Assembly (NCBI GenBank): GCA_020056225.1
Contig: JAGVIE010000020.1
Span: 6,331-70,330, forward strand
DNA length: 64,000 nucleotides
Direction of reading: 5' to 3'
Source of the DNA: Bacteroidota bacterium
GTDB lineage: Bacteria > Bacteroidota > Ignavibacteria > UBA10030 > SZUA-254
A model generated the notes under the pieces. That model did not search any database, was not told the DNA's origin, and saw only the letters and a list, made by a program, of their open reading frames with translations. Below, in pieces: positions 38,252-64,000 of this stretch; positions within the stretch are counted from its first letter, which is position 1, and each line of letters opens with the position of its first letter. The translations under genes were made by a program, and so were the position numbers.

Positions 38252-38259
38252 ATTAGATA

Positions 38260-40860: not shown

Positions 40861-41297
40861 GATTCAACCTCAGCAATTTCATGCACAGAGATTTCGCGCG
40901 TATTTTCGTCCTCCCCGAGCTTAAGAAATACATCAATCCGATTAGATGGAAGAAGCGCCTTAACTCTATCTGCCCATTCTATCAAACATACGCCGTCACC
41001 ATAGAGATACTCATCAAAACCAATTTCATCAAGCTCGGAAATTGTTTTTATCCTGTAGAAATCGAAATGGAAAACATTCATCTCCTTGCCGGTATATTCA
41101 TTAAGGAGAGTGAACGTCGGGCTTGCAACATGTTCCTGAACGCCCAATCCTTTACATACACCTTTGATGAAACGCGTTTTACCGGTTCCCAGATCGCCAA
41201 AGAGCGTGACTACACTTTTGATGGTCAATCTCTTAGCGAATTCAACGCCTAAAGTTATCGTCTCGTCTTCAGAATGTGTTTTGTAGAATTGCATCAT
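40857..41297 (-). CDS. tsaE: tRNA threonylcarbamoyladenosine biosynthesis ATPase TsaE (YjeE)
   Basis: 146 aa. The P-loop is LFGDLGTGKTRFIKG and it has ...SPTFTLLNEY.... Confidence 0.85.
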   Translation of the reverse strand: MMQFYKTHSEDETITLGVEFAKRLTIKSVVTLFGDLGTGKTRFIKGVCKGLGVQEHVASPTFTLLNEYTGKEMNVFHFDFYRIKTISELDEIGFDEYLYGDGVCLIEWADRVKALLPSNRIDVFLKLGEDENTREISVHEIAEVES

Positions 41298-45900: not shown

Positions 45901-48900
45901 TTCATCGATTTATAATTGAAGATATCGAGCGGTCGAGTAATAAAACGTTTTACAACCTCACGTGAGGTATCCTTCGGCAGACCGTTGAGAATAAGCGCCA
46001 ATGATTGCTCATTCGCTTCGATAATTTGATTCGGATCGGAACGGTCTTTTTCACGCGCGATTCCCAACGCATCCCAATCCTCAGAGTATTGTGGATTATC
46101 TTCAATATTAACTACCGAGACTTTCATAACTGAATCGCTTTTTATCCGTTCCTCCCATTGATTGCCAACGAGATTAAGCTCGGCAACGCGAATACTTACC
46201 GGTTGAGAAAATCCTGAAAGCCATAATCTTATATACTGGACATCCTCCAACACAGTCGATGCATCGATACCACCGAATACTCTGGTCGCCTCGAGCAGGG
46301 GAATCCGATATTGATACCATCCATTCTCACCACCGCCTACGATATAAGTTGAATCGATCAGCGGTATTTCATATTCGAGATACAGCTCACTGCGGTCTAT
46401 ATTGCCGTTGCCGTTTAAATCCTCCGTATTCGGGAAAAGACCGGCTGGGTCTTGTCTGTTCTGATCGGTCCCATTGAACTTTGTAAGATGTATTCCGTCG
46501 CCGTATGCTGTCCAGTTATCTCCACCGGGATCATTTGGATCTACGTCCGGGTCACTGCTGTTAGATGCGAGAAAGGCGGCATGGATAATCTTTTCCTGAT
46601 TATCATCGAACATATCTACGCCTGCATCTTCACCTTCATTCAGGACGCCATTCGGTATCCCACCCGGATTGATTTCAGTGTGAATGATATCCTCTGAATT
46701 CAAATTTCCGTCGGGTATTACGTCTTCGCTTATCCTGCCGAGGTCGATGTGCATTCTCCCTTTATTTAAATCATTGAGGTCATCGCTCGACGCTTTCATC
46801 CATATTTCAATGTACGCGATATTCTGACTGAGGACATTTCCTGCCATCGACCCGATGTAGCGCATGATACCACCCCAGTTTTCTCTGCGAGCGTCCGGGT
46901 TATTATATTTACCGGTTCCGCCGCCTATCTCCTGCCGATTTAATGTTGAATCGAGATCGGGGGAAAAATTATAGGTGCCGCGATGATTCGGATCGAAATC
47001 AAGATTCAATACGGTAACCTGATTTTGTCCCGCACGCGTTCTTCGGTTGGGCCATATATCAGAGGTTGTAACATCGGTTGGTAAGCGATTGTACCATGAC
47101 AATCTGGATCTTTTATAACTTATCACCGAATCAGGAACCAGTTGGTTCGCTATCGAATCCATTGGCGTACTTGACATCGACCATGCTGCATATGTGATTG
47201 GAAATGGAATCGTGCGGCGGATTCCCTCAAAATCGTCGACATAGGCGATGCTCGCTCCATGATCGCTCAACACTGCGCTTTTCTTCGTGTTAGGGTCGGG
47301 AATCATGTAAGCGCCTTCCCCGTTGATTCGCCATGTAGACATTTCTTTTGTTCTAATCAGGGGCAGTGCGTCAATTGCATCGGTGAGAAACGGAAGATTT
47401 GCGCTCGTTGAAAAATCCATCCCGAGCATCATGTTGTTCGTAGGTTCCTCTCCTATCCTGACTTTATCACTCAGTGTTTGCTGGTTTAAATTCATGATTG
47501 TAAACCCGAGTTTAGTATTCGGGAAAGCGTCTAACTCTCCGCGAGCGCCGATCAATGTTTTCGAGGCAAGCTGAAACAGATCGTTCTGCTCGTATTTGAT
47601 CTGAAGATTCGCTCCCGGAACAAGTGCTTCGGGCCTGCGGATAACAACCTGACCGATAATATAGTCAATAGTATAATCGACATTAGGTGTCAACGGACTG
47701 CCGTTCAATAACACATGCACGCTTCCTTCTACAAGATTCATTGAACCCAAAGTAAAAGTGCTCGTTGTGCCTCCTGCGGCTACGACTTTGATAATATATT
47801 TATTACGATCTGAGTTCTGGGCGGCTGACATAGTTGTATCATAAATATCTCCAAACAACAAAGAATCGCCCGCAGTTTTATTGTTACTCCTGAAATACTG
47901 TGTGATCGTCGAGTCAAAGGGCCTTAGTGTGGGGAAAATAACCTCGCCACGCTCAACATCAATAGTCAACCCGGGAATGAAATCGAAAAAATTATCCGGT
48001 GTAGGTGAATTAAACTGGTTAAACCGATCAAGCCCGAGGACCGATAATAAATTTAGTCCTTCGATATTATCCTCGTCTGCTCCCACTGTTGCACGTCTCC
48101 ATATATTAAGTATAAAACCATCTTTCTTGAGATTCTGTATCCCGAGGGAATAAAAATTCTTCAATAATAAATTCCAGGCATGCGTGTAACCCGGTCTTAG
48201 AGATAGCGGCTTGATTAATTTTAAATATGTCAGTGTATCATTTCCCGCAATGGTGCCACCAAATACTTTATTTACATTGTTCTCTCCTGCAATAGTATAA
48301 GAGACAGCAATTACCTGATTATCGGAAGGAGCCGAATTAAGTGTTATATAACCGCCATATGTATCGAATTTATAATCTTTATTCGGGATAAGGCGGACAA
48401 AAATCCCTGCCTCGTATCTGCCAGATTGCTTGCTGAGCGTCTCAATCTGTTCGGAAGAGTAGTTCTCATTAACATTGATAGAAGGCAGATCGATATATGC
48501 TCTGCCTGTTTTATAATTACCCTGAGTATATGTTTGACTGCTTGTAGATACATTCGTCGCATAAACATCTAACTGTAATATCTGATTCGCCTCAATATCA
48601 GGAGTTAGAATCCGCACCTGTGATTCTTGCAGTTTAGCAAAATACTTCGCGTAAACCGTATCAAGGAAGAAATGGTTCTTGGTGTAATCATGTGCTTGAA
48701 TTGTTCTTTCGATGGTCGTTGAGCCGCCCGATATTGTCAGTTCTTTTGTCTGTCCCTTCTTCTGCGATAACAAAGTTGTCAGCGTCAGCGGACCGGCTTG
48801 CAGTTTCGCTTTAATGCCGAATAATGCCTGCCCGCCTCCAACCAGCGAAGGTGTTTGAAGTGAAACGTTTCCGGCTTCGATACTCTGAATTATTTCGTCA

Positions 48901-49868
48901 TCGAATCCGGTATATTTGATCTTCAATTGATTTTCATATTCGAATGTACGCTGTGTGTTCCAATCGGCGAGGATATTCAATTTTTTGCCTATCGTACCGC
49001 TCACATTTACCTGAACATTTTGGTTAAAGTCAGGCTCGTTCCGCGAACGATCGAGTTGTGAGATCGTCGATTGATCTGATTTGGTATTGCGGAATGCGCC
49101 TCGGATATCCACTCCGCCCGATATGCGGAGGTTATTTTCTGTTCCTCCAAAAATGTTAGAGATCGGATTCGAAGGAACGGTGATCGATATATTAGTTATT
49201 GATCCGAGAAGGTTGGACAGATCGTCTTTGGTTTGTGCTTTTGTATACTGGGTTGCAATCGACCGCCAGCTTCGTTGTTTTTCGTATTCATAACGAAGAT
49301 GAATGTAATCCTCCAATTTCATCGTGGTCGGAATTTTCACATCCACGCCGTTAACCATCTCGCGCACCGTGATTGTTTCGCCTAATGTATCGAGCTGGAT
49401 ATCCCGTTTGTAAACCTGCAGGCTCGGATCGAGATAGAGTGAATAATTATCGCGTGGAAACATCTCAACCATAGGTTCGTCATACCTTTGATGAACGAAT
49501 TGCTCAACGCGCGCCGTTGAATCTTTAAAGTCCTGCCACTTTTCACCTTCTTCTTCTTTATACAGAGTGTCGGTTGAAGCGGCAATCGAATCGATCAAAG
49601 CACCTATGGAATCGCTGACGGAAGGTGCCCTACCCATACGATGCTGAATTAGAGTATCGATATTTTCTTCTTCGTCGGGAAGAGGAGTTAGCAATTGCCG
49701 GGTTGAGTCAAAAGCTGTTGTATCGGGGCGATTGATGTAGAGTGAATCAACTTGCGCAAATAAAGAGGTGTAACAAATTAAAGCCAGTGTGGTAATATAA
49801 AAGAACCGAAGAATTCTTTGGTTAGCGAAGGATGTATTAATATAATGATGCGTACTAAAACGAGTCAC
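42954..49868 (-). CDS. sprA: SprA/Sov-like T9SS outer-membrane translocon candidate
   Basis: 2304 aa with a signal-like N-terminus. Its size matches SprA/Sov (about 2400-2500 aa) and its composition is β-strand-rich and aromatic/Gly/Asn-rich. Its neighbours are porX on one side and lptFG, porV and porU on the other. Confidence 0.6.
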   Translation of the reverse strand: MTRFSTHHYINTSFANQRILRFFYITTLALICYTSLFAQVDSLYINRPDTTAFDSTRQLLTPLPDEEENIDTLIQHRMGRAPSVSDSIGALIDSIAASTDTLYKEEEGEKWQDFKDSTARVEQFVHQRYDEPMVEMFPRDNYSLYLDPSLQVYKRDIQLDTLGETITVREMVNGVDVKIPTTMKLEDYIHLRYEYEKQRSWRSIATQYTKAQTKDDLSNLLGSITNISITVPSNPISNIFGGTENNLRISGGVDIRGAFRNTKSDQSTISQLDRSRNEPDFNQNVQVNVSGTIGKKLNILADWNTQRTFEYENQLKIKYTGFDDEIIQSIEAGNVSLQTPSLVGGGQALFGIKAKLQAGPLTLTTLLSQKKGQTKELTISGGSTTIERTIQAHDYTKNHFFLDTVYAKYFAKLQESQVRILTPDIEANQILQLDVYATNVSTSSQTYTQGNYKTGRAYIDLPSINVNENYSSEQIETLSKQSGRYEAGIFVRLIPNKDYKFDTYGGYITLNSAPSDNQVIAVSYTIAGENNVNKVFGGTIAGNDTLTYLKLIKPLSLRPGYTHAWNLLLKNFYSLGIQNLKKDGFILNIWRRATVGADEDNIEGLNLLSVLGLDRFNQFNSPTPDNFFDFIPGLTIDVERGEVIFPTLRPFDSTITQYFRSNNKTAGDSLLFGDIYDTTMSAAQNSDRNKYIIKVVAAGGTTSTFTLGSMNLVEGSVHVLLNGSPLTPNVDYTIDYIIGQVVIRRPEALVPGANLQIKYEQNDLFQLASKTLIGARGELDAFPNTKLGFTIMNLNQQTLSDKVRIGEEPTNNMMLGMDFSTSANLPFLTDAIDALPLIRTKEMSTWRINGEGAYMIPDPNTKKSAVLSDHGASIAYVDDFEGIRRTIPFPITYAAWSMSSTPMDSIANQLVPDSVISYKRSRLSWYNRLPTDVTTSDIWPNRRTRAGQNQVTVLNLDFDPNHRGTYNFSPDLDSTLNRQEIGGGTGKYNNPDARRENWGGIMRYIGSMAGNVLSQNIAYIEIWMKASSDDLNDLNKGRMHIDLGRISEDVIPDGNLNSEDIIHTEINPGGIPNGVLNEGEDAGVDMFDDNQEKIIHAAFLASNSSDPDVDPNDPGGDNWTAYGDGIHLTKFNGTDQNRQDPAGLFPNTEDLNGNGNIDRSELYLEYEIPLIDSTYIVGGGENGWYQYRIPLLEATRVFGGIDASTVLEDVQYIRLWLSGFSQPVSIRVAELNLVGNQWEERIKSDSVMKVSVVNIEDNPQYSEDWDALGIAREKDRSDPNQIIEANEQSLALILNGLPKDTSREVVKRFITRPLDIFNYKSMKMFVHGDQSFTPGDAEIYLRFGTDALNFYEYRQPIYPGWELSKNEINVIFSRITAVKSARPDSMANKYYVADALNGIAGATYGVRGSPSLRQVREISIGIRCVNVPYLSGDVWVNELRLVDVDNSPGAAYRFDTQIKLADIGQVAFNYSRTDPTFHSLDQRFGNQTAAASWAVNASISIDRFLPQDWQGTSIPFAYSHSENIVKPKYLPNTDIVVEEAARRASPDVSKSMITQSQTLNIKDSYSISNFRIVLPSQAWYIRDTFSKLSFIFNYNTTRDRDPSFELRKTWGWNLRVNYGVTLPNDYFIQPFSTLFKGIFFLEDYKDWKIYYIPITSLSAGVGGSRSRSYEIPRAKNSLTRDSRNFGATKSFGFGWKFTEGGLLNLGGDYGLSLDRNLTPLDNDSVGRDFLSIMKSLFFGGQDSRYGQKVSLNLKPKIPNILDLPKYFDFSTGYSVNYSWQNTFTKGDIGKSAAFDNNISMSLGFRLKSLTDPWFDTKEETAQLQPAPMAMNKPDPARTALLNDSTSRKDSSQTAQPSESNTKKMLQQLRSIAKILIKIPLLDYETINISYSQSNRSSNPSVIGSTGFKNFWGRLPFQGSLDEYGPSRLYQLGIITDPHGTLQFAPKSKFPFLGWKTIYGPRPAGAQPTDQFSQSNNITLRTNRPLWTGATIDINWKVGWNYSRTTTIRDSAGHFVRGEPITSGSIDRSFLTLPPVLFMKVFKSNLETVGKKYEQFQKTDAPDVALTKAFEQGFEALPFLSKVLGPYVPRPNWTIRWDGIEKLVGLGSVMERLSLEHNYSSNFRRDFQSNLGKGQRTNAEKMSYGFSPLAGVNMTFKQVLKGNLSGNFRYNTTTNYDLNLTAQQPNIVSALAQEISFTLNYARRGFSFPLFGLNLSNDIEVSFTYSRTKSSRRRYDPTLLSSDQEGIPLEGNIRTVLEPRIRYVLSTRVTAALYYRYTKTAPDAAGSTIYGVTTNEAGVDIHISI

Positions 49869-52694: not shown

Positions 52695-52772
52695 AGATTA
52701 TTTTTTCTTGAGATTGCAATCACCGGTGCAGTAATTTTATTACTTCGAGATAATCCCGATGTGAATCTCGGA

Positions 52773-53687
52773 TTAGAATGAATATTGAAAATCTGCCCGC
52801 GCCCCGGGGAGATAACCGTACGGAGTTTTATACATTTCCATCCTTACCGATGCGTGAAGTGCTTTATTATATCGCGTCGCCGTCCATGCGGCATCAAGTG
52901 CGCTGAGAATATGATTCACGATGATAACCGATACGAATGCGTCGGCAACCTTGTAATATTTATCTGCCTGGTTAAACATTGCAAAATAATCATAATATTG
53001 CTGGTTGGGTGTCATATAATCCGCTTCGTTCGGATCTTCAGAATCCCACCCCTTGCTGAATTGCCGGTATTTTCCTATCAGTTCGTAGTATTGCTGTTCA
53101 CCAAAATATTCCAGCTTATGTGTAAAGCCTTCTGTATTCATATCGTTTTCCAATTTATTTAATTCAGCCCAGTTCAGACATGGATAAGGCGGCTTGCAAT
53201 TATCATCCGGCGGATCAGGATTGAAAAGCTTATAGTTGTCCATATTCAAAGTATTATTATAATATTTTGCATTATTGCGAAGCCACTCGGCATAACGAAC
53301 CGGGCTGTAATGTTCGTTAGCATAATTTTTGAAGAGAGTCGTCTGATCGTTTCCTTTTTTATCGTAAACCAATGCGGTGATCCATGACCCGACCTCAACA
53401 CCGAAAAATATTCCCGCTTTCACATAACTTTTAGAGTAAAACTCACCGGCGCCGGGAACCGCCAGCGAAAGTAAGCCCGCTATCCATGGAGATTTTTCTC
53501 CGTCGGGATTCGGTTCGAACTCCTGCAAGTTGAGATTCGGCTGTTGTGATATTAACTCGTTGGGTACAGACTTCGGGCTGCCGAAGAAATCAACTTTCGG
53601 GTTACCCGTGAGATATAGCTGCTGCTTTTCACCAGCCGTTACCAGAGTTGTGAAAATTAATATCATAATAAATATTTTATATCTCAT
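52773..53687 (-). CDS. Hypothetical secreted protein (last gene of a four-gene coupled operon)
   Basis: 304 aa with a signal peptide MRYKIFIMILIFTTLVTAG. A hydrophobic segment IAGLLSLAVPGAGEFY follows. The protein is Tyr/Asn/Asp-rich with no recognisable family. Confidence 0.4.
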   Translation of the reverse strand: MRYKIFIMILIFTTLVTAGEKQQLYLTGNPKVDFFGSPKSVPNELISQQPNLNLQEFEPNPDGEKSPWIAGLLSLAVPGAGEFYSKSYVKAGIFFGVEVGSWITALVYDKKGNDQTTLFKNYANEHYSPVRYAEWLRNNAKYYNNTLNMDNYKLFNPDPPDDNCKPPYPCLNWAELNKLENDMNTEGFTHKLEYFGEQQYYELIGKYRQFSKGWDSEDPNEADYMTPNQQYYDYFAMFNQADKYYKVADAFVSVIIVNHILSALDAAWTATRYNKALHASVRMEMYKTPYGYLPGARADFQYSF

Positions 53688-53704
53688 TGAGCATTCCTTC
53701 TTTA

Positions 53705-56700
53705 TTAGTCTAGGTCAAAGCCGAATAAAACACCGAAGTGAAAATTCCACTCCCTGCCGTAGGTAACCACTTTGTTAGAGTTTTCAATTGTATAATCAAA
53801 CTTATCGAAGCCGTATGTTGCATTTAAAAAGATTCTTGTAGGGAAAGCATAGTAGGAAAAAGCTTCGATTCGTAGTTCAACGCCCGCATCTTTTTTCCAT
53901 TTACGATTTTTCAATCCGCCCCCCGTCCACGCGCTTCCGGCATCGCCATAGACCGAAGCATAGAGACTGTTGAATTGCATCTGCAAAAAACGGAGATCGA
54001 TATTTTCAAGCAGCGGGAACCTGTAAGTTAGATTTGCCATCGCAAATTCATTCCCTCCGAGCGAATAGAACGAATACCCCTTCATGCCGGCGAGTCCGCC
54101 AATATAAAAATTAAAGAAATTATCCACCGGCGGACCGAAGATAGTACCACCGCGTAGATGCGCAGACAATGTATGTTTCCATGCAGGAAGTTTAATAGAT
54201 TCCCGCCATCCAATCTCCAAACGATTGAAATTTATGTGTTCATATTTTGCGACTAAAACACCGTTCTTCACATCATACTCGCCGCTTGGATTGAATTTAT
54301 TGAATTCATGTTCATATCGTAAACGGATTTTCCTTCCTACCGGATTGATTTCCGATGTCTTAGACGGCAATATCCCGTCGTATCTCAATGTGAGCGAAAG
54401 ATTATTCCCGACCAAATAAAGCTCGCTGAATGCAGGGAATAGACCTCCGGGTAAATCGAATTCTCCTATCGTTGCCGTATATCTACTATGAGCATACCGT
54501 AATTCTGCATCAAGTCGCTCATTTAGAATTTTTTGTTTGAGCGCTACATCAAACTCGATTAAATTATAAGAAATACCAAGCTTGATAGTATCGATAGGCA
54601 AAGCAATATACGAATCTGTTTTACGTGTAATGTTGTACGCTTCCAATGATAGCGCAGGCTCCAATCCGAGCTGATAAAGTCCCGGTATCTTCCCGCGATA
54701 ATCGAATGTGAAAAAGACATCACGTTCACCTTTTAAATTCATCGCGCCGCCCGCGAAGAAACCGTACCGGTCCAAGACATCGTACGAGTACGCATATAAT
54801 CCTAACTTGATAACATCGATTCCTTTATTCTTCGGATTATAATTATCTACACGTAATAACGGGACGAAAGCTAAACCCGTGGAAATGTTTTTATACGTCG
54901 TGTCCTTGAATGCCGGAATCTGAATGTCGTCATATGATCGCAGTTTTTTCCAATCCATCTGCAAATTTTCATTCTCAACCGATGCTAACGCTCCTGCATT
55001 CGCCTGAATATAATTACCGGGATTCTGGAGCGACTGCACACTGTCAAGCAGCGCTATTATAAAACCGCCGGATGCGTACGAGGCAAAAGCGATACTACCT
55101 TCATTACTAACGGTGGGCATAAATGTTCCGCCAAATACATTAGTGAGCTGAACGGAGGTTTTAGCCAATAGATCGTATTCATATATATTGAAGATGCCGG
55201 TTTTGTCGGATGAATATATTATACGATTCCCATCCGATGTAAACACGGCATTACGTTCATCCGATGAAGTATTCAAAATAAATTTTACCTCACCGCCATC
55301 AGCAGGAATAATTGTGATGTCTCGTCCGTCGCGTACCGAGTAATCAAAAATTATCGATCTGCCGTCGGGTGACCATTTAGGATTATAAACCTGCTCGCCG
55401 TTTTGGTAAGCGGTAAGCTTCTTAACATTTTTGCCGTCGATATCCGAAGTGAAAAGATTGATGGTTCCGTCACTCGCGATTACAAATGCAATTGTTTTCC
55501 CATCGGGTGATACTGCCGGAGACCCTGCACGCAAACCGTTGGTCAGGCGTGTCTCCTCATCCTGCTCGATATCGTAGACATAGAGATCGAAAACATTAGC
55601 CCAATGCGGGTTATCTTTGCTGATTTTTGAGTAATAGATTTTCTTTCCGTCCGGTGACCATGAGAGATTCGACCGTACTCCATGCATGAGGAGTTTCTCT
55701 GTCTTCGATAAAATATCATACAAATATAGAGAGGATGAACCGAAGTAATCTCCATTTTTATTGCTTATAAAAATTATTTTCTTCCCATCCGGTGAGAAAG
55801 TCGGATAGAAATTTGCAAATCCCTCACTCGCGATCATTTCACCATCGATGATATTAGTTTTTATCGGAGCAACTCTGTCTGCATAATCTTTTCGAAGAAA
55901 TTCTTTCCACTCGGCATATAATTCTTTTCCGCTCTTGCCGATAGCTTTTTCTATCGCACCATCGATTGAAACTGCCGTCAGCGATGATAGATGCTCGGAA
56001 ATTTCGCGCAGTTTGTCTTCACCGTAATGTTTCGCCAAATAGCTGACGAGTGAATATCCGGAATTGTACGATGATTCATTGCCAAGGCTTGTCTTCCCGA
56101 AAACCGACATCTCATTCCATGTGAGTAATTTATCTTCAAGCGCGTACATCCGGAGAATCATATCTCTATGAGAATCCCACGATTCATATCCGAATTCTTT
56201 CCGGTTATATTGAGCAACGCCTTCGGCAAACCATACAGGAACGACGAATCCCGAAATCGGATATGAAACGATTCCGTTGGGATAGCCATAAAGTACATCC
56301 GTACGTCTTTCAGACTCATATTGCAGCCATTGTAAATAAATGGCAGGGACCTTTCGTCCGAATTTCAATGCTGTTTGAATTTGAATGAGGTGTGTGTATT
56401 CGTGCGAGATAACGTTGCGCAGCCAATTGTGTGTTCCTCGTAAATCATAATCGAGCGCTGATGACCAAATTTCAATTTTGTTATCGAAGAAATATGTAGC
56501 TCCGTTGGAAAAATCATCATAATCTTTAATGATGAAGCTAACTCTACCTTCCGGTTTGTAGTGATAGAGTGATGTTATCGGCTCATATATTTCTTCCGCG
56601 ATCTTTGCCGTTATTCGGGCGGTGCGTTCGGTACCTGTATGGTAATGTACATAAAAATGATCGGTCTGTATTGTACGCCATTCCAATTCCAGATGATAAA

Positions 56701-56779
56701 ATTCTTCCTGTGCGGTAATTTTCCCGATGATGAGAAGAAGAAGAATTGCGGATAACCAGTGTCTCATAATATTTTTCAT
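53705..56779 (-). CDS. Large secreted/outer-membrane multidomain protein with an HEXXH-motif N-domain, PD40/TolB-like β-propeller repeats and a C-terminal Omp85-like β-barrel-type region
   Basis: 1024 aa with a signal peptide. It has an intact VISHEYTHLIQ (HExxH). There are at least five PD40-type repeats (SPDGKKIIFISNKNGD, SWSPDGKKIYYSK, SPAVSPDGKTIAFV, KWSPDGRSIIFDYS, FTSDGNRIIYSSDKTG). The C-terminal 400 aa has alternating β pattern and ends ...EWNFHFGVLFGFDLD. Confidence 0.5.
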   Translation of the reverse strand: MKNIMRHWLSAILLLLIIGKITAQEEFYHLELEWRTIQTDHFYVHYHTGTERTARITAKIAEEIYEPITSLYHYKPEGRVSFIIKDYDDFSNGATYFFDNKIEIWSSALDYDLRGTHNWLRNVISHEYTHLIQIQTALKFGRKVPAIYLQWLQYESERRTDVLYGYPNGIVSYPISGFVVPVWFAEGVAQYNRKEFGYESWDSHRDMILRMYALEDKLLTWNEMSVFGKTSLGNESSYNSGYSLVSYLAKHYGEDKLREISEHLSSLTAVSIDGAIEKAIGKSGKELYAEWKEFLRKDYADRVAPIKTNIIDGEMIASEGFANFYPTFSPDGKKIIFISNKNGDYFGSSSLYLYDILSKTEKLLMHGVRSNLSWSPDGKKIYYSKISKDNPHWANVFDLYVYDIEQDEETRLTNGLRAGSPAVSPDGKTIAFVIASDGTINLFTSDIDGKNVKKLTAYQNGEQVYNPKWSPDGRSIIFDYSVRDGRDITIIPADGGEVKFILNTSSDERNAVFTSDGNRIIYSSDKTGIFNIYEYDLLAKTSVQLTNVFGGTFMPTVSNEGSIAFASYASGGFIIALLDSVQSLQNPGNYIQANAGALASVENENLQMDWKKLRSYDDIQIPAFKDTTYKNISTGLAFVPLLRVDNYNPKNKGIDVIKLGLYAYSYDVLDRYGFFAGGAMNLKGERDVFFTFDYRGKIPGLYQLGLEPALSLEAYNITRKTDSYIALPIDTIKLGISYNLIEFDVALKQKILNERLDAELRYAHSRYTATIGEFDLPGGLFPAFSELYLVGNNLSLTLRYDGILPSKTSEINPVGRKIRLRYEHEFNKFNPSGEYDVKNGVLVAKYEHINFNRLEIGWRESIKLPAWKHTLSAHLRGGTIFGPPVDNFFNFYIGGLAGMKGYSFYSLGGNEFAMANLTYRFPLLENIDLRFLQMQFNSLYASVYGDAGSAWTGGGLKNRKWKKDAGVELRIEAFSYYAFPTRIFLNATYGFDKFDYTIENSNKVVTYGREWNFHFGVLFGFDLD

Positions 56780-57444
56780 AGGATAAACGTACCGTTCGTA
56801 ACTCTATCGTTAAATAACTTGATTGAGTCGTATATAACGCTGCGATCTGGAAGTTGTAATTTAAGTTTTATCATCGGTAATATTTTATAAACAGCTTTGA
56901 AAGTATCTGGCGAATCATAATAATCGAACTCTTTGCCGATGGGCAAATTATTGCGCTCGATTGTAAACTTTCCTCTTCTGTCCGTTGTATCAGTTCGTCT
57001 GCCATCGAGAACAACCGGCGAATATTTTACAACGGCTGTATCGATATAATACCGGATTAAATACATTCCGCTTCCAACCGGACGATACATCCAATCTAAA
57101 CCGTCCCACCAAATGCGCCGGATCGGTCCGGTACGGTGCCAGAATCCGAGAAAGATCGTACTGATGAAATCGTGCTCTAAAGTAAATACGGTTATATCCA
57201 CAACTTTCATAGAATCGGTAACGATCACTTGCTGTGTGTCGGTCGGCAGTGCGGCAACAGAATCATAATAATAATAAAGTGAAACCGCCAAATCTTGTAT
57301 CGCTATTCCGCTGGAATCTATAACAATTCCATTAAATTGATACTTAGTTGCAGAAGATGATTCAGTGTATGGCTCGATCTCCCGACATGAAAGCGTAATC
57401 ACACACAATAAACCGGCAACAACATACCGCACAAAACACCTCAC
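56776..57444 (-). CDS. Hypothetical lipoprotein
   Basis: 222 aa. The lipobox-like LLCVITLSC lies in the signal peptide. It is 4-nt coupled to both flanking genes. Confidence 0.4.
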   Translation of the reverse strand: MRCFVRYVVAGLLCVITLSCREIEPYTESSSATKYQFNGIVIDSSGIAIQDLAVSLYYYYDSVAALPTDTQQVIVTDSMKVVDITVFTLEHDFISTIFLGFWHRTGPIRRIWWDGLDWMYRPVGSGMYLIRYYIDTAVVKYSPVVLDGRRTDTTDRRGKFTIERNNLPIGKEFDYYDSPDTFKAVYKILPMIKLKLQLPDRSVIYDSIKLFNDRVTNGTFIL

Positions 57445-60400
57445 TTCACGACAGCTATCTTAATGATCGCATACCCGCTCTTGTTCGATCCGCTCGCATC
57501 GATGTGGACGAAATAAATTCCGCTTTGTATCTTCGAAACGTTCCAAGATATTTCGTTATCGAATCCGCCGTACCCCGGTCCATCGAACTCGGTTACTAAA
57601 TCGCCGGCAGGATCGAAAATCCGAATATGTACTTTAGCATCGTCACTAAGAAAATATCGTATGTAAGTCTTGAAATCGTCCGATGCGCCGACAGGGTTGG
57701 GCCAGTTGTATGCAAGTGCAGTCGGCATAAATTCGTTGCTCTTTGGGACGAGAGGGGATGTTGATTCATCTAAGCCTGTGTTTTGAGCATCGTGCATATA
57801 TTGGGACCACGGCATCATTCGCGCGGTGTCGGAAATTGTTTGTACCGTTCCAGTTCTCCACGCATAAACATACCCGTCATCCGATGCAACTGCTAAACCG
57901 ATTCCGATTCCTGTTGAATCGGCTGGTAAATAAAACGCGGCTGGTGAACCGATGCCACCAAGAACCGGGAACCCGGTTGCCATCTTTCCCGATTTATCGT
58001 ACGCAACAATTAAACCTTCCTGTGTGACAGCCACAATATCGAGCGTGCCATTACCGTCAATATCTGCAACAATTGGAGGTGACCAAATCGATTTATCTGT
58101 AGCAACTTTTATCGGAAAATTATCTAATAAATTTCCGACAGCGTTAATAGTATAAATCTTATTGCCGCTGAATACTATAATATCTTTCTGTCCATCATCA
58201 TCGATATCTGCGAGAGCTGGAGAGAGATAGATTTTACCATTTGTTGATGATGGAAATCCCGGCATGGCGTTCAAATTCTCATCGAGAAGATAAACGAGAC
58301 CATCGTCAGATGCTGTAACAATCATTTTACCGATAGTTGGTGAAATTACGCCTGCTATTACTCCGGGCCATAAATGCTTTGAAAGATTTCGGGATCTAAT
58401 CATTCCTGCTGATGTAAAAATTCCGATTTCACCATAAACACCTGTAATAACAAATTCATCCGGTTGTCTCCAAACGCAGATACCACGGATATAAGAAGAA
58501 TCGGGGAAAGCTACCGAGCTGTGTGTTTCTTGATTTCCGGAACGTTTCATCACCAGAACCAAATTCCCATTTGGAACGCAATAAAAAGAGTCTGACATAA
58601 CTATAGATGAGAAGCCACTGCTTGCGATTTCCCCCTTTGTTAAGTCATCAGCAAGACTATCGTTATTTTGATCCCTCAGCATATAAAAATTAAACCAAGT
58701 CTTTGGTGGGGAAAAGAAAAATGATTCCATACCAACAATACCAAAATCCTGAACTTGATCGGCATTGATATCGCCAACAGCAGGTTTTCCAAAAAACAAT
58801 TTTAGGGTTTGATTTGTTGTTTGAACCAAAATTCCGGATGAATTATAATATGGTTGAATAGCCATACCATTCGTTTGCCATCCTGCAATTATTCCAGGCA
58901 ACGCTGCAATTGTTCCATATGTATTTGCCGCAACCAGTATATCTTTTTGACCATCACCATTCAAGTCGGCAACACTTATAGAATTACCCGCAAATATTCT
59001 TTGAAGATTTTTCGGAAATCCCGCCAACGGTCTAATCACATCATCTCCAACCTTAATTCGCGCCTTCATTATTGAACCGCGGTATGATAATCCGGTGGTA
59101 TCCGAGCTTGTAGTATTACCAATATAAATATGGCTGTTTGCGCCGTAATTACTCCCGCTGCCGGGATATGAAGTCGGCGTAAATGCGTTAAGTTCCTTGC
59201 GAAGCAATGCGCTGTGGCCGCGAAACCAGAAATCCAAAGCCCAGCCATTCTCCGTGCCCGAACCTGATTGAAGAAGATCGTACGACTGCCCTATATCCTG
59301 CGAGCCGTCCGCCTCCATCAGATTTACACCGCGATGTTTGGCATCCGCATTCACCGAATTTGTTCCGAGGTTGGCATCAATCACCACCTCATCGATATGC
59401 CAGATAAGTAAACCACCGTCGTATAATACTTTTGTTTTACTATCAACGCCGCCCGGCAGACTCCAGTCAAATTCATCGACATCGGTGATAACACCGTACA
59501 GCGAATCAGGACGATCGGCGTTGAAACCCGTTGTATCGCGTTCCCAGCTTTTTTCGATCGATTCACCGTTGTAAATCATTTTAATTTTCACACTGTCGCG
59601 GTTTGCATCACGGTTGCGATTTTCAACGAGGAAATATTCCTTCGCGCTTATCAATACCTGGTAGATTGTGTCAACGCTATCTGTCAGCGTGACGGCGGGG
59701 AAATTATATACAGTGTCGCCGGATGAAACAATATTCGGTTGAACCCATCCCAAAAATTTCTTTTCCCATGCGGATGGTTCGGGAGGAAACGCGCCATTCC
59801 AACTGAAAATCGATTGTCCGTCCATCAATCCGAAACGACCGATCCCTGAACGCCCTGTCTTTGTATTGAATAGATCTGGCAAACCAAGATAACTTCCAAC
59901 ACTCGCGGCAAGCAAGCCATTGATGCTTAGGGGAAAAGGAACCTGCTCACGCGTTTCAGTCTCCGGTAAGATCATCGAGTTAGTAATGTTGAATGTCGTG
60001 TTCCCCATAGTTACCGGAAAACCGTTCGACCAATCTGGATTCATTTTTTGCAAACTCTTCCCGTTTAAATAAATCGATGGGATATCGAACGGCGTCGGAT
60101 CGTATCCATAAACATTCACGAGGTCGATGTCTCTGCCGGCTCCGGCATGAAATATCAGAAAAGCATTATACTGACTGTAGGAAATATCGAGCAGATGCAG
60201 TTGAACAAGCGAATCAACCGCGTGCCAGGTATCTCTCATCAAATATCCCAGTTCGATATTATTGGTGCTGGATTTTTGCGGACTGTAAAAACGCATCGGA
60301 TTGGGAACGCGTATAACGCTATCGATCAGAGTTGTATGTACCGCAAGTTTCCCGTCGGATGCTTTTCTAAAATAATTTTCTAAAAAAGTCAGGTGGCTCT

Positions 60401-60695
60401 CAAAATAAGATCTATTATGCGGCGGCGCATCGAGAGTTTTTTTTGCCGGAAGTGAAAGATCGAACTTTCCATCACCTGTTGTCCTGTCATCGGAATCTGC
60501 CGGGAACTCGACCATAACGGCAAGTACGTTGATAGAGGATTCTGGATTTGCAACCCGAAGAAGTTGCGGTATGTCCGATGGATTGTCATTTCTCTCAAGC
60601 GTCAGCGAATGATTAAAAACGGGAATCTCTTTTGTTTGTCCTTGAAGCGATACGGCAAGCAGTAACAGTAACGAAAGAGTTTTTATGGTTTTCAT
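57441..60695 (-). CDS. T9SS cargo protein with a degenerate M6 (InhA-like) metallopeptidase-like N-domain, FG-GAP/VCBS-type repeats and a C-terminal T9SS sorting domain
   Basis: 1084 aa with a signal peptide. The N-terminal VLAVMVEFPADSD is M6-like. ...LAASVGSYLGLPDLF... occupies the place of the M6 HEXXHxLGLPDEY zinc motif. Asp-rich repeats are DLNGDGQKDILV, DIDDDGQKDIIVFSG and DIDGNGTLDIVAV. The C-terminus is ...HIRIFDPAGDLV...SGIYFVHIDASG...IIKIAVVK (type-A CTD). Confidence 0.6.
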   Translation of the reverse strand: MKTIKTLSLLLLLAVSLQGQTKEIPVFNHSLTLERNDNPSDIPQLLRVANPESSINVLAVMVEFPADSDDRTTGDGKFDLSLPAKKTLDAPPHNRSYFESHLTFLENYFRKASDGKLAVHTTLIDSVIRVPNPMRFYSPQKSSTNNIELGYLMRDTWHAVDSLVQLHLLDISYSQYNAFLIFHAGAGRDIDLVNVYGYDPTPFDIPSIYLNGKSLQKMNPDWSNGFPVTMGNTTFNITNSMILPETETREQVPFPLSINGLLAASVGSYLGLPDLFNTKTGRSGIGRFGLMDGQSIFSWNGAFPPEPSAWEKKFLGWVQPNIVSSGDTVYNFPAVTLTDSVDTIYQVLISAKEYFLVENRNRDANRDSVKIKMIYNGESIEKSWERDTTGFNADRPDSLYGVITDVDEFDWSLPGGVDSKTKVLYDGGLLIWHIDEVVIDANLGTNSVNADAKHRGVNLMEADGSQDIGQSYDLLQSGSGTENGWALDFWFRGHSALLRKELNAFTPTSYPGSGSNYGANSHIYIGNTTSSDTTGLSYRGSIMKARIKVGDDVIRPLAGFPKNLQRIFAGNSISVADLNGDGQKDILVAANTYGTIAALPGIIAGWQTNGMAIQPYYNSSGILVQTTNQTLKLFFGKPAVGDINADQVQDFGIVGMESFFFSPPKTWFNFYMLRDQNNDSLADDLTKGEIASSGFSSIVMSDSFYCVPNGNLVLVMKRSGNQETHSSVAFPDSSYIRGICVWRQPDEFVITGVYGEIGIFTSAGMIRSRNLSKHLWPGVIAGVISPTIGKMIVTASDDGLVYLLDENLNAMPGFPSSTNGKIYLSPALADIDDDGQKDIIVFSGNKIYTINAVGNLLDNFPIKVATDKSIWSPPIVADIDGNGTLDIVAVTQEGLIVAYDKSGKMATGFPVLGGIGSPAAFYLPADSTGIGIGLAVASDDGYVYAWRTGTVQTISDTARMMPWSQYMHDAQNTGLDESTSPLVPKSNEFMPTALAYNWPNPVGASDDFKTYIRYFLSDDAKVHIRIFDPAGDLVTEFDGPGYGGFDNEISWNVSKIQSGIYFVHIDASGSNKSGYAIIKIAVVK

Positions 60696-60743
60696 ACGAA
60701 CAGATTAAATTTCATAATAGTACGTGAAGAGTCAATACAACAG

Positions 60744-60777
60744 CTATGGAGAAGGTTGCTTTATTCCTTCTCCATAG
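60744..60777. terminator. Perfect 12-bp stem hairpin downstream of porV (terminator-like, weak U-tract)
   Basis: ctatggagaagg(60744-60755)-ttgctttatt-ccttctccatag(60766-60777). On the minus transcript it is followed by CUGUUGUAUUGAC. Confidence 0.35.
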
Positions 60778-60818
60778 TAATTATAATTATTTATGTAATG
60801 ATATAATTATCTTTTTGA

Positions 60819-61985
60819 TTATTCTTCTTGTTCTTCACCGCCCCAACTGATCAGTAAAGTAAAGCGGAGAGTTTCGCTAAGCGGGTGATTCTCTTCGAGA
60901 GTGGAGAGATAGCTAAAATCGAATCCATATATATCGTAGCGGATGCCGGCGCCGAAAGTCATAAACTTTCTGTTTCCATAATCAGGATGTTCGTAGAAAT
61001 ATCCCCATCTCAGGGCAAAGAGCTTCGGCTTACCGTACCAGTATTCCAATCCGCCGGCTACAGTAACCTTCTTCAATCCTCCGGATCCCCACGAACTGAA
61101 TAGTGATTTAGGAAGATTATCCACATACGATTCCTGAACAACTCTGCCGCTGTCATCTTTCACCTGCGGATAGCGTCGTACAAGCATACGGCTGAAGTCA
61201 ACTACCGCTTCCAGATTGTTGAATTCACTTTTCACGATTTTGAATCCCAATCCCAATCTCAAATTAGTCGGTAATGGATCTGCCTGTGATTTTTGGATGT
61301 AGGTTATTTTCGGACCAAGATTCGAGAGGTTCATACCGGCGCTGAAACGATCTTCGATATCACCAACAAGCGGCAGTACTATCGAGGAGGGTTTCCATAG
61401 AGTTCCGATATCGAAGCTTACAGTCGAACCGACACCTTTGATTCCTTGTCCTTGTGACGGATTAGGATCGAGAGCGCTGTAGATGAATCTGATATTCAAC
61501 CCTAAACCCAAATCGGTCGCAACCTTCGTTGAATAGCCGCCGGTTATTGCAAACTCGTATGCTTTGAATGTTCCTAAGTTATTATTCTGGTCATCGCGCC
61601 GTTCAAATGAGCCGAGGTTCAGATAGATGATGCTTCCGGAAACAGTTCCGCCCCAATCCTCGATATTCTGAGTATATGAAAAATATTCATAGAACAAATC
61701 CGAGAGATGAAATTGCGGCAACCAGTTGGAGTGAGTAATGCTTATTTCCTGACCCTTTGCAAAGGCTAGCCCACCCGGATTCCAGTACGAGGCAGATCCA
61801 TCATCACTTAAAGCAGCACCTGCTTCACCCATACCGTCGGCACGAGCGTTTGGCGCAATTAGTAAAAATGGAACTGCAGATTCGCCGCCGCCGCCCGACT
61901 GACCGAATGCCGGTTGTGCGGTAAACACAGCGAGAATCGCGAATATTATAAGAGCAGAGAGTTTCGCATATTTCTTTTGTATCAT
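60819..61985 (-). CDS. porV: PorV (LptO)-like T9SS outer-membrane shuttle β-barrel
   Basis: 388 aa with a signal peptide. The N-terminal AVPFLLIAPNARADGMGEAGAALSDDGSASYWNPGGLAF matches the PorV/FadL-like family start. It is the right size and lies immediately downstream of the porU-like gene. Confidence 0.75.
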   Translation of the reverse strand: MIQKKYAKLSALIIFAILAVFTAQPAFGQSGGGGESAVPFLLIAPNARADGMGEAGAALSDDGSASYWNPGGLAFAKGQEISITHSNWLPQFHLSDLFYEYFSYTQNIEDWGGTVSGSIIYLNLGSFERRDDQNNNLGTFKAYEFAITGGYSTKVATDLGLGLNIRFIYSALDPNPSQGQGIKGVGSTVSFDIGTLWKPSSIVLPLVGDIEDRFSAGMNLSNLGPKITYIQKSQADPLPTNLRLGLGFKIVKSEFNNLEAVVDFSRMLVRRYPQVKDDSGRVVQESYVDNLPKSLFSSWGSGGLKKVTVAGGLEYWYGKPKLFALRWGYFYEHPDYGNRKFMTFGAGIRYDIYGFDFSYLSTLEENHPLSETLRFTLLISWGGEEQEE

Positions 61986-62103
61986 GATGAGAATCCTTTA
62001 AAAAAGGTTATTAAATGATGAAAATACTTCGATTTCTGTTTTGCCTGAGAATTAATTTACCACCTTCGACTTTGAGAAGCAACTTGCCTCAGGATATTTT
62101 AAT

Positions 62104-64000
62104 TTATTTTAAAACGCTAAGCTTGCCGAGCGCTTCGCTTGAAAATCTTCCATCTTGTGTTTTTGCAATAATTTTGTAGAGATAAACACCGTTTGCGGGA
62201 ACATCCCCGTCACGGTCACGGCCATCCCAGGGAATACGCGCAAATTGATTTGCAATATTATTCTGTTTTATCGTTTGAATCAATCTACCGGCTACGGTGT
62301 AAATCTTAACCTGCACATCAATATTAACAACCTGATTGTGGTCGAAGGTGAAAACGGTTGCTGATGAAAATGGGTTCGGATAGTTGAATACATTGAATAT
62401 CTTTAAGCCGTCGCCCGATACAACATTAAACATCGTCTCTTCGGTGGAAGAATTATTATAAGTATCCCACGCGCGCAAACGAAGTTTGTGAGTTCCCTTT
62501 GAAAGAGTCCCCAGAGGATATTCTATGATACCTTCGGCGTACGTATCGAGTTTACTCTTATAATAATCAGAGAGATCGAAACTTTCCGGTTTTTCATCGA
62601 GCCAGGCTTCGAGCCGATGTCCGATGCCTGCCCCGGATGTATTTAGCCCGTTTGAATCGGATAGTTCGGCAATTAGTGTTGGAGATGAACCGACTACGTC
62701 GCCAGGGCGAAAACTTTTACGGTCGAGGTAGAGTTTTATTTGCGGTCCTATGGAATCAAGCGAGGCATCCGGATTTGTACCATTCACTGTAATATTTGTA
62801 AATCCTGCGCCATCAGTTGAATCATTCGAGAAATAAATCGTTATGCGGCCCGGCGAATCACTGTACGCTATATCTTTAGGCACAATAAAATCCGAACGGA
62901 GCAATCCATTCTGAATGCTGTTCTGCCCACGAAAGATAATACTGCCGGACGCCGTGTATGTCATCGTACGATTTATTTCCGGAGCGATAATTTCCGGAGC
63001 GATAAGCTTAATCGATTTGTTCGCATCATACACTACAACCTGCGCCTGCCCCGTGAAATTTATCGGGTTATCTGTTGCGGTATCCCTAACCGTTGCTTTG
63101 AAGGATGCTCGCTCAAGGGCTTTCATTCTGATACTGTCACTGCTTGGGTGATTATTGATACTATCAATCGATGCGACAAGTTTGGGAAACGATAGAACCA
63201 GCGCGGGGTCACCGAGTAAAAAATACTTCCGATCATTATCATCGTTCCGGTCTTGTTTTGTTCTGTACACGATATCTCCTATACGCTGTGACCGTAGCTT
63301 GCCGTATCGAATCGTATCGAGAAGATAATGATAAAATGTTCTATTCAAATCGAAGTTCTGATGTGCATAGACCGGTCGTGTGGCAGAGAAAACGCCGATA
63401 GCGCCTGCATTCGATAAATTTACGAGGATCTCTCCACTGCTTCTATCGCTTAACTGATCGAAGTTGGCATAATTACAGGTTGCCGCAACAAGGAAAAAAT
63501 ATTTTCCTTTGTTATGAAGCAATGGAAAATCGGTTTCCCGGACAAACACGGCCTCGTGGGTCCATAGACGAGGGTTACCGTGACCGGTAAAATTCAGAAT
63601 AAGCGTGCCCTGGTTAATCGCATTTTGAATGGCAGTGTTCACATCGGGTTTTCTTCTTCCGCTTGCCGTGAATACAGTGGGGTAATCGTATAAATAAATT
63701 TTCTTTTTCTCAAAAACCGGAGGAACCATTTTGGAGATATCATCTGCCTGCTGAGTGTGTATTAATCCGTCTGTGATATCACCTGCCTGGGGACCATCGT
63801 CGGCAACGAACGTAAAATTCAATTTCCAAGAATCTGCGATCGATTTTGTTTCGTAATCGATGATCTTATCGACCATGACATTTGCCTCTTCAGAAGTTCT
63901 TGCCGTGAGCCGCCCGATTCCCAAGTTAACCCGGCTACCGCTGAAAAATATTCCATAATCATCGTCGGTTGTATACGTGTATAATTCACGGAACGATTCT
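62104..64000 (-). CDS. porU: PorU-like T9SS C-terminal signal peptidase (C25 gingipain-like fold). The C-terminal ~630 aa is present and the 5' end is beyond the window.
   Basis: The ORF continues upstream past 64000. It has ...LILNFTGHGNPRLW...FFLVAATCNYANFD..., a caspase/C25-like His...Cys arrangement. Its own T9SS CTD is at the end (NVFNYPNPFSSATVF...KIYTVAGRLI...NGVYLYKIIAK...LSVLK). The porU-porV adjacency is conserved in T9SS organisms. Confidence 0.7.
   Translation of the reverse strand, partial: ESFRELYTYTTDDDYGIFFSGSRVNLGIGRLTARTSEEANVMVDKIIDYETKSIADSWKLNFTFVADDGPQAGDITDGLIHTQQADDISKMVPPVFEKKKIYLYDYPTVFTASGRRKPDVNTAIQNAINQGTLILNFTGHGNPRLWTHEAVFVRETDFPLLHNKGKYFFLVAATCNYANFDQLSDRSSGEILVNLSNAGAIGVFSATRPVYAHQNFDLNRTFYHYLLDTIRYGKLRSQRIGDIVYRTKQDRNDDNDRKYFLLGDPALVLSFPKLVASIDSINNHPSSDSIRMKALERASFKATVRDTATDNPINFTGQAQVVVYDANKSIKLIAPEIIAPEINRTMTYTASGSIIFRGQNSIQNGLLRSDFIVPKDIAYSDSPGRITIYFSNDSTDGAGFTNITVNGTNPDASLDSIGPQIKLYLDRKSFRPGDVVGSSPTLIAELSDSNGLNTSGAGIGHRLEAWLDEKPESFDLSDYYKSKLDTYAEGIIEYPLGTLSKGTHKLRLRAWDTYNNSSTEETMFNVVSGDGLKIFNVFNYPNPFSSATVFTFDHNQVVNIDVQVKIYTVAGRLIQTIKQNNIANQFARIPWDGRDRDGDVPANGVYLYKIIAKTQDGRFSSEALGKLSVLK

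Follow-up and report, generated by a model that had tools for sequence, protein, structure and literature searches.

Gene content of the locus

[quoted passage not shown] The order is porU, porV, M6i, target and a DUF5683-like gene, with sprA and porX nearby:

62104..64000, minus strand: PorU, T9SS C-terminal signal peptidase/sortase, with its N terminus beyond the window edge (Peptidase_C25, 194 bits; NF033707, 623.9 bits over profile positions 496-1094)
60819..61985, minus strand: PorV, T9SS outer-membrane shuttle barrel (PF19572, 121.9 bits; NF033710, 279.6 bits against a cut-off of 250)
57441..60695, minus strand: M6i, T9SS-dependent M6-like inactivated metalloprotease (NF052323, 808 bits against a cut-off of 600)
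56776..57444, minus strand: lipoprotein-like gene, 222 aa, with start/stop overlaps of 4 nt with each neighbor
53705..56779, minus strand: target gene, an intact ORF of 1024 aa encoding a signal peptide, a gluzincin domain, a PD40 propeller and an Omp85 barrel
52773..53687, minus strand: DUF5683-like membrane protein, 304 aa, 17 nt downstream of the target (PF18935, 29.2 bits)
42954..49868, minus strand: SprA/Sov T9SS translocon (TIGR04189, 1039 bits)
41294..42871, minus strand: PorX T9SS response regulator (NF052313, 719 bits)

M6i combines an M6-like domain and an FG-GAP propeller with a C-terminal sorting domain of the Por_Secre_tail type A, and the HExxH motif is absent from all 127 homologs examined. 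Judged by its sequence, M6i is a catalytically dead M6-like T9SS cargo. Some of the loci have the lipoprotein-like gene inserted between M6i and target (22/84 by tblastn, plus others). The envelope-biogenesis genes around the target also include those for LptF and LptG. A scan of positions 52400-64000 for sigma-70 promoters and terminators stayed at background level and is uninformative on operon structure; promoters of the FCB group differ from the sigma-70 consensus.

Domain layout of the target protein

The target protein is 100% identical to database entry P0001, which carries the name "Tol biopolymer transport system component." The first-pass annotation had divided it into an HExxH domain, a PD40 propeller of the TolB-like kind and an Omp85-like C-terminal barrel. 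This parse proved correct in profile searches and in an AF2 model (pLDDT 78.9, pTM 0.74), with the HExxH domain being that of a metalloprotease. The features of the protein, all encoded on the minus strand, are as follows:

56711..56779, minus strand: Sec/SPI signal peptide, aa 1-23 (MKNIMRHWLSAILLLLIIGKITA, then Q), recognized from sequence; lipobox Cys absent
55850..56710, minus strand: clan MA gluzincin catalytic domain, aa 24-310
56390..56404, minus strand: HEYTH, the predicted zinc-binding and catalytic motif, with H126, E127 and H130 (aa 126-130, in VISHEYTHLIQ)
56222..56224, minus strand: Glu186 in WFAEGVAQY, candidate for the third zinc ligand, on an M1-like "xEGxA" helix
55046..55849, minus strand: six-bladed TolB-like PD40 beta-propeller, aa 311-578
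54872..55045, minus strand: linker, aa 579-636, largely disordered and poorly conserved, with no POTRA fold
53708..54871, minus strand: Omp85-type beta-barrel of 16 strands, aa 637-1024
54074..54100, minus strand: GGLAGMKGY, loop-6 motif of the "(V)RG(F/Y)" type, between strands 11 and 12

The signal peptide forms a helix (aa 2-23) in the AF2 model and is presumably cleaved before Q24, a residue that is invariant in the orthologs. At the other end, formed by the last barrel strand, the protein closes with NFHFGVLFGFDLD, and a profile search for a T9SS sorting domain (Por_Secre_tail type A or B) gave no match; the target itself is therefore not T9SS cargo. The linker has low pLDDT and low conservation, and its modeled secondary structure is limited to a short helix and a short strand. 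The best-conserved part of the protein is the peptidase domain, with a mean column identity of 75% versus 57% for the barrel.

The catalytic domain carries an invariant predicted zinc site

The intact VISHEYTHLIQ that had been noted near the N terminus places HEYTH at aa 126-130. A protein of this composition is expected to contain approximately 0.023 HExxH motifs by chance, and the motif recurs without exception in close homologs (120/120) and in distant full-length relatives (101/101). A chance occurrence is thus ruled out, and the motif, whose conservation the first-pass annotation had asked to be checked, looks catalytic. H126, E127, H130 and E186 are all kept in the 101/101 diverse full-length relatives (27-54% identity). 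In the AF2 model, Glu186 lies at the start of helix 182-191, beyond the HExxH helix (119-140) and a conserved beta-hairpin insert, and its position on this next helix suggests that it is the third zinc ligand.

An HExxH motif with a downstream glutamate (H126, E127, H130 and E186) is the hallmark of gluzincins, and the catalytic domain has the thermolysin-like or M1-like fold of clan MA(E), with Peptidase_MA_2 scoring 36.5 bits against a Pfam cut-off of 32.4. The closest gluzincins of this clan are M30 lugdulysin/hyicolysin, the M1 aminopeptidases (ERAP1, APN, F3) and the M9 collagenases. The target differs from these enzymes in a conserved insert of about 40 residues, the beta-hairpin between its HExxH and Glu helices, and it lacks all of the flanking domains of the M1 and M9 enzymes. 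Sequence-profile searches against PDB sequences matched nothing meaningful for the N-terminal domain and were nearly empty for the barrel, with TamA at E=0.53, so that structure comparison was needed.

A TolB-like propeller and an Omp85-type barrel

The propeller had been described as having at least five canonical SPDG-type PD40 repeats. It is indeed a PD40 propeller, with six blades in the AF2 model and a Pfam PD40 score of 99.8 bits over four stretches; the exact SPDG motifs number four (aa 329, 375, 424 and 470) and are joined by two variants, TSDG (~514) and SNEG (558). The TolB equivalog TIGR02800 reaches 123.8 bits, far short of its cut-off of 343, and covers only the propeller (profile positions 197-390). 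We therefore rejected the identity of the protein as TolB or as a Tol transport component. The target shares the propeller with TolB of the Tol-Pal system, whose N-terminal domain is unmatched in the target; conversely, TolB has neither the protease nor the barrel that anchors the target in the membrane.

The C-terminal region, suspected earlier to be an outer-membrane beta-barrel, is modeled as a 16-stranded barrel of the Omp85 fold that is structurally similar to BamA, TamA and FhaC, the best structure matches being BamA, Sam50 and TamA. The loop-6 motif reads GMKGY (aa 898-902, within loop 882-910) and aligns with VRGY of TamA. Of the 101 relatives, 77 have R or K at position 900, 84 retain G901 and 93 retain Y902; an aromatic C-terminal strand is likewise conserved. 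Pfam Omp85 (PF01103) gives 21.5-21.9 bits on the target, below the cut-off of 24. Orthologous barrels match the same profile at E≤0.01 in 17/33 cases (best 1.5e-10), and several target homologs have a precomputed PF01103 match; the sub-threshold score is a shortfall of sensitivity and leaves the structural evidence uncontradicted.

In comparison with the insertases BamA, TamA and Sam50, the similarity of the target is marginal at the level of sequence (the Omp85 and TamA scores above), and its N-terminal part consists of the enzyme and the propeller instead of POTRA domains. No POTRA domain was matched by Pfam, and the segment before the barrel is the disordered linker of the AF2 model. POTRA-less proteins of this kind were placed in separate non-POTRA subfamilies by Heinz and Lithgow (PMC4104836).

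The target belongs to the WD40-like Omp85 subfamily

The first-pass annotation had regarded the three-domain protein as an unusual fusion, a view that does not hold. The architecture has been known since 2014, when Heinz and Lithgow (Front Microbiol 5:370, PMC4104836) defined a "WD40-like" Omp85 subfamily with the same tripartite organization. Their Table S2 lists PF01103 + PF07676 combinations, and Table S3 gives about 100 members with Phyre2 matches to BamA/TamA barrels, TolB and an aminopeptidase or collagenase-type domain; the main text discusses the propeller alone, which is likened to a BamA-BamB fusion. The paper covers neither the conservation of the catalytic site nor T9SS gene linkage, both of which are addressed here, and contains no experiments.

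The target has the PD40/TolB-like propeller and the Omp85 barrel of this subfamily, preceded by the aminopeptidase-like domain that most members possess, in the same order. Full-length relatives are numerous: 101 full-length-like cluster representatives were found among the best 150 matches of a whole-library profile search, and one genome scan gave at least 600 stretches matching the target, with relatives numbering in the thousands. From their UniProt accession prefixes, we take the entries of Table S3 to include Ignavibacterium album and Melioribacter roseus, and further entries presumably include Vibrio, Geobacter, Anaeromyxobacter and Sorangium. Given that the zinc site does not vary within the family, its members are very probably real enzymes, beyond mere scaffolds. 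The family also contains stand-alone paralogs with unrelated neighbors (L117, L137, L160 and L167) and extends to phyla without a T9SS; a general restriction of the protease to the T9SS is therefore excluded. The subfamily is thus large and widespread, and our search of the literature on Omp85/PD40 proteins and T9SS found no experimental study of any member.

A conserved porV-M6i-target cassette

The main new result is the gene context, on which the first-pass annotation was silent: the target homologs lie in a conserved T9SS cassette of porV, M6i and target, usually followed by a DUF5683-like gene. In three sets of loci with enough flanking sequence, the first of them from Ignavibacteria, M6i was found upstream of the target homolog in 71/71, 3/3 and 45/48 loci and PorV in 70/70, 3/3 and 43/45. 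The DUF5683-like gene lay downstream in 63/67, 3/3 and 56/66 loci of the three sets. The porV-M6i-target triad is also present in Marinimicrobia-type loci (L085-L087), in another FCB-type locus (L171) and in Fibrobacterota (L168-L170), which links the target with core T9SS genes across lineages.

The outer flanks of the triad are unrelated between the Ignavibacteria, Marinimicrobia-type, FCB-type and Fibrobacterota loci. In the Marinimicrobia-type loci, BamD adjoins the target homolog. The triad itself is kept at 28-40% identity in three phylum-level lineages amid completely reshuffled outer flanks, and such a linkage would be difficult to account for without selection. We found no description of the cassette in the literature on T9SS in Ignavibacteria, Marinimicrobia and Fibrobacteres or on T9SS with Omp85 or TolB, and a recent paper on the structure of the Bacteroidota BAM makes no mention of a propeller, metalloprotease or peptidase.

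Discussion

In our preferred reading, to which we give a probability of roughly one half, the target would be a zinc peptidase tethered to the outer membrane that probably faces the periplasm and acts for the PorV module of the T9SS; its topology, zinc binding, activity and substrate are all inferred. The barrel would act as a membrane anchor and possibly as a docking site. N termini of Omp85 barrels are periplasmic, and the N-terminal domains of the target would hang into the periplasm as in other Omp85 proteins. By analogy with prolyl-oligopeptidase-type enzymes, the propeller might capture or filter unfolded peptide segments and feed them to the gluzincin site. Candidate tasks are the clearing of cleaved C-terminal sorting domains, the clearing of stalled cargo, and the processing or partnering of M6i. 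A point against this reading is that mature M6i and PorU should reside at the cell surface, so that a protease facing the periplasm would encounter them only during their passage.

The order PorU, PorV, M6i, target looks like two successive pairs of a surface protein with a sorting domain followed by an outer-membrane barrel, a pairing known from PorU-PorV and PorZ-PorQ of the T9SS attachment complex. M6i, like PorZ, has propeller repeats and a sorting domain, and the match between the two is weak and confined to the sorting domain. The barrel of the target differs from PorV and PorQ in being of the Omp85 type, outside their family, and in having a protease attached. A precedent for a TolB-like propeller as a periplasmic part of the T9SS is PorE, a periplasmic component that carries such a propeller (PMC5053529).

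More tentatively, the cassette-type members may be an unrecognized conserved T9SS subunit of FCB phyla beyond the well-studied Bacteroidia. In one version of this idea, the target and the dead M6i would give the attachment complex another arm made of a surface protein and a barrel, comparable to PorZ-PorQ; in another, the target would supply the peptidase still missing for the removal of cleaved C-terminal sorting domains and would thereby recycle PorV. Under either version, if true, an Omp85 barrel would anchor a secretion-system protease instead of working as an insertase or translocase.

The first-pass annotation had suggested a surface-anchored protease or sensor; the analysis gave no indication of a sensor role. 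As a surface protease, the target would be a self-exporting protein similar to those of type Vd, in which the Omp85 barrel would translocate its own protease and propeller in the manner of PlpD, with M6i, PorU-PorV complexes or cleaved sorting domains at the cell surface as targets. PlpD (patatin-POTRA-Omp85) likewise has a hydrolase N-terminal to an Omp85-family barrel in a single polypeptide, and this option was raised by Heinz and Lithgow for enzyme-Omp85 fusions (PMC4104836). It also agrees with neighbors, M6i and PorU, that are T9SS cargo expected on the surface, and with the long flexible linker (aa 579-636), which could thread through a pore. However, a search for the type Vd layout in the target found neither a patatin nor a POTRA domain, the gluzincin and propeller standing in place of the patatin lipase. 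A surface location of the N-terminal domains is the less likely topology, because Omp85 N termini are periplasmic and the target shows no POTRA or other sign of passenger export. Export of the enzyme part is judged unlikely, and so is this explanation.

The barrel could alternatively belong to a specialized BAM/TAM-like insertase, a "BamA-BamB fusion" that inserts or assembles, for example, PorV, SprA or the M6i anchor. In this case the propeller would serve as the scaffold in place of POTRA or BamB, and quality control would fall to the protease, as it does to BepA for BAM. The best barrel matches (BamA, Sam50 and TamA), the conserved loop-6 motif and aromatic C-terminal strand, the envelope-biogenesis neighbors (LptF, LptG, SprA and PorV, with BamD adjoining in Marinimicrobia-type loci) and the discussion of a BamA-BamB fusion by Heinz and Lithgow (PMC4104836) all speak for such a role, which we nevertheless regard as rather improbable.

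A general housekeeping peptidase of the envelope or a component of the Tol-Pal type, as database names such as "TolB" imply, with its T9SS adjacency a historical accident, would suit the TolB-like propeller, the stand-alone paralogs and the spread into phyla without a T9SS (PMC4104836, Table S3), but it is a doubtful account of a protein whose sub-cut-off TolB match is confined to the propeller, whose protease and barrel are absent from TolB, and whose triad is kept despite reshuffled flanks.

For the proposed zinc peptidase of the PorV module, a large orthologous group locked in a porV-M6i-X cassette in at least three FCB lineages points to an unstudied T9SS accessory outside the Bacteroidia, and the findings likewise suggest that the Omp85 barrel is used here for something other than insertion. 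The invariant zinc site and the conserved cassette make the family testable, and a cultured carrier is Chitinispirillum alkaliphilum (CHISP_2778).

Architecture and family of the 1024-aa protein

The first-pass annotation had read the minus-strand gene at 53705–56779 as an unusual fusion of an HEXXH domain, a PD40 propeller and an Omp85-like barrel, and its parse into these segments is borne out. The ORF is intact, HEYTH occupies aa 126–130 within VISHEYTHLIQ (the chance expectation is ~0.023 HExxH per protein of this composition), exact SPDG motifs lie at aa 329, 375, 424, and 470, followed by two degenerate copies, and the protein ends in NFHFGVLFGFDLD. The N terminus, MKNIMRHWLSAILLLLIIGKITA followed by Q, is a Sec-type signal peptide lacking a lipobox cysteine, with cleavage inferred before the Q. 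This residue, Gln24 (window positions 56708–56710), is invariant in an alignment of 57 orthologs and recalls the "Bacteroidetes Q-rule" of pyroglutamate N termini in signal peptidase I substrates (PMC5837995). A full-length structure model (mean pLDDT 78.9, pTM 0.74) shows the poorly conserved linker at aa 579–636 as disordered for the most part, and no POTRA-like fold was found in this linker. We are highly confident of the structural and family identity read here.

The fusion is not unusual: in 2014, Heinz and Lithgow sorted the Omp85/TpsB superfamily into ten subfamilies, one of them "WD40-like" (PMC4104836). The tripartite layout is already on record there, because PF01103 appears together with PF07676 in Table S2, and the approximately 100 UniProt entries of Table S3 have Phyre2 matches to BamA or TamA barrels (4k3b, 4c00) and to TolB (2w8b), plus a "best aminopeptidase hit" (1z5h, 4kxd, 3qnf, or 4ar1, ~99% confidence); of these parts, the main text takes up the propeller alone, which it likens to a BamA-BamB fusion (PMC4104836). 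The protein is thus a member of a known but uncharacterized kind: our literature search found no experimental work on the family, NCBIfam holds no model for it, and databases name its members "PD40 domain-containing protein," "biopolymer transporter Tol," or "tolB precursor." Judging by accession prefix, the Table S3 entries presumably include proteins of Ignavibacterium album and Melioribacter roseus, and also of Vibrio, Geobacter, Anaeromyxobacter, and Sorangium.

The zinc site is invariant

Whether homologs conserve the HExxH had been left as a check, and they do: it is kept in 120/120 close homologs (55–100% identity). For distant relatives, 1.84 billion cluster representatives were searched with a profile; of the best 150 matches, 101 were full-length-like (900–1300 aa; 27–54% identity to the query). 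His126, Glu127, His130, and Glu186 (in WFAEG) are present in all 101, while the loop-6 motif GGLAGMKGY, between barrel strands 11 and 12, keeps R/K in 77, G in 84, and Y in 93 of them. In comparable ortholog sets, mean column identity is 75% in the protease domain, the best-conserved part of the protein, versus 57% in the barrel. This invariance and the degree of conservation of the protease domain suggest that catalysis is under strong selection. One close homolog (P0066, 1348 aa, 66% identical to the query across 57% of its length) bears a precomputed caspase-like Peptidase_C14 match (PF00656), which reflects an additional fusion or else an artifact of gene calling or assembly.

The gene lies in a type IX secretion system (T9SS) neighborhood

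The main new result concerns the surroundings of the gene, which in the window are as follows.

Genes around the 1024-aa protein
62104 to window end, minus: PorU, N terminus cut off (NF033707, 624 bits)
60819–61985, minus: PorV (NF033710, 279.6 bits versus a 250 cut-off)
57441–60695, minus: M6i, "T9SS-dependent M6-like inactivated metalloprotease" (NF052323, 808 bits)
56776–57444, minus: lipoprotein-like gene, 222 aa, without family assignment
53705–56779, minus: the 1024-aa protein
52773–53687, minus: DUF5683-like membrane protein
50223–52694, plus: divergent LptF/LptG pair
42954–49868, minus: SprA/Sov (TIGR04189, 1039 bits)
41294–42871, minus: PorX (NF052313, 719 bits)

The minus-strand order is thus PorU, PorV, M6i, the 222-aa gene, the 1024-aa protein, and the DUF5683-like gene, with SprA and PorX past LptF/LptG. 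Both junctions joining M6i, the 222-aa gene, and the fusion gene are 4-nt overlaps, and 17 nt separate the fusion stop from the DUF5683-like start. Only some related loci have the 222-aa gene (22/84 in the first set), which makes it an optional member. The DUF5683-like protein has a signal peptide, hydrophobic helices, and an end (…ADFQYSF) like an outer-membrane-protein C terminus. T9SS genes are dense throughout the last third of the window (41294–64000), with LptF and LptG lying between them. Of three adjoining minus-strand genes at 33331–39027, one encodes a 1015-aa TPR protein that shows YbgF/CpoB-like and BamD-like matches repeatedly, along with a subthreshold one to PorW/SprE. The other two encode a 630-aa protein combining a beta-barrel with an OmpA/Pal-like part, and a protein with a TonB_C domain; the trio possibly forms a module of Tol-Pal-like or T9SS-periplasmic type.

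The cassette survives reshuffling of its flanks

Scanning GTDB with a single genome for each species returned at least 600 matching stretches; the best 80, which all come from Ignavibacteria-type genomes (one of them Kryptonia-type), were combined with four loci found by exact look-up, and the window's neighbors were sought by tblastn and jackhmmer. Among loci with sufficient flank, M6i lay directly upstream (71/71), PorV lay upstream (70/70), and the DUF5683-like gene lay downstream (63/67). Marinimicrobia-type and unassigned FCB-group relatives (~38–41% identity) keep all four genes, in outer flanks unrelated to those of the window: SHMT, NrdR, and Trm112 upstream with BamD downstream in one variant, type IV pilus or glycine-cleavage genes in others. 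PorU is nonadjacent in these loci. Among loci from a metagenome scan that used a different subgroup as its seed (36–41% identity), 45/48 have M6i upstream, 43/45 have PorV, and 56/66 have DUF5683 downstream. The DUF5683-like gene, conserved downstream of the fusion gene in L086, L088, L091, L093, and others, has a second, shorter DUF5683-like paralog after it in many metagenome loci.

At 28–29% identity, Fibrobacterota genomes, including that of the cultured Chitinispirillum alkaliphilum (CHISP_2778), retain PorV, M6i, and the fusion protein, with the DUF5683-like gene absent after it. Their PorV homolog carries an insertion of ~430 residues, reaching ~800 aa (L168:3819-6224, L169:3630-6011, L170:3802-6186); the insertion has faint Reg_prop (propeller) matches and splits the barrel after the first ~60 matched positions. 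In the distant lineages, the upstream genes are PorV-family by NCBIfam (189–298 bits versus a 90 cut-off), and the M6i matches are full-length at 334–552 bits, below the 600 equivalog cut-off.

M6i homologs retain FG-GAP repeats and a T9SS sorting domain (type A and C-terminal in the window), a layout of propeller repeats plus sorting domain loosely similar to that of PorZ. HExxH is absent from all 127 full-length M6i homologs among the 171 loci, so a dead protease is consistently paired with a live one. The accessions adjacent to NF052323, namely NF052324 ("putative T9SS sortase PorU2") and NF052325 ("putative type IX sorting system protein PorV2"), match only weakly here; their numbering hints that NCBIfam curators saw M6i near a second PorU/PorV-like sorting pair.

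A few stand-alone paralogs (L117, L137, L160, L167) have unrelated neighbors: Metallophos, SMC-like ATPase, HNH endonuclease, short-chain dehydrogenase, RmuC, and Zn_peptidase genes. L160 adjoins a divergently oriented SprA and lacks M6i and PorV. Because of such paralogs, and because the family as a whole extends into phyla without T9SS, the linkage marks one large orthologous group and not the whole family. This breadth agrees with a rival reading, a generic Tol-like housekeeping role with accidental synteny, which nevertheless leaves unexplained why the porV–M6i–fusion triad survives complete flank reshuffling across three phylum-level lineages. We put the probability of a real functional tie to T9SS at roughly 60%. 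Our literature search found no description of the family-wide invariant catalytic site and conserved cassette, which together lead to the concrete, testable hypothesis that FCB bacteria outside the Bacteroidia have an additional T9SS accessory.

Proposed role

To our knowledge, all structurally characterized Omp85 proteins have periplasmic N termini, and by this analogy the protease and propeller probably face the periplasm, tethered via the flexible 58-residue linker. Surface anchoring as a PlpD-like (type Vd) self-exporting protease would place the enzyme at the site occupied by mature M6i and PorU, but is less likely given the lack of POTRA, the intact loop-6 motif, and the big folded domain pair that would have to cross the membrane. 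Propellers bind or filter extended peptides in prolyl-oligopeptidase, DPP-IV, and tricorn-type enzymes, and TolB binds disordered peptides. In the periplasmic arrangement, the propeller could likewise bind or filter extended segments and hand them to the gluzincin site, and the enzyme would serve the PorV module of T9SS. It might remove cleaved C-terminal sorting domains or stalled cargo, or mature or partner M6i, any particular substrate being doubtful. A precedent is PorE, a periplasmic T9SS component that carries a propeller like that of TolB (PMC5053529).
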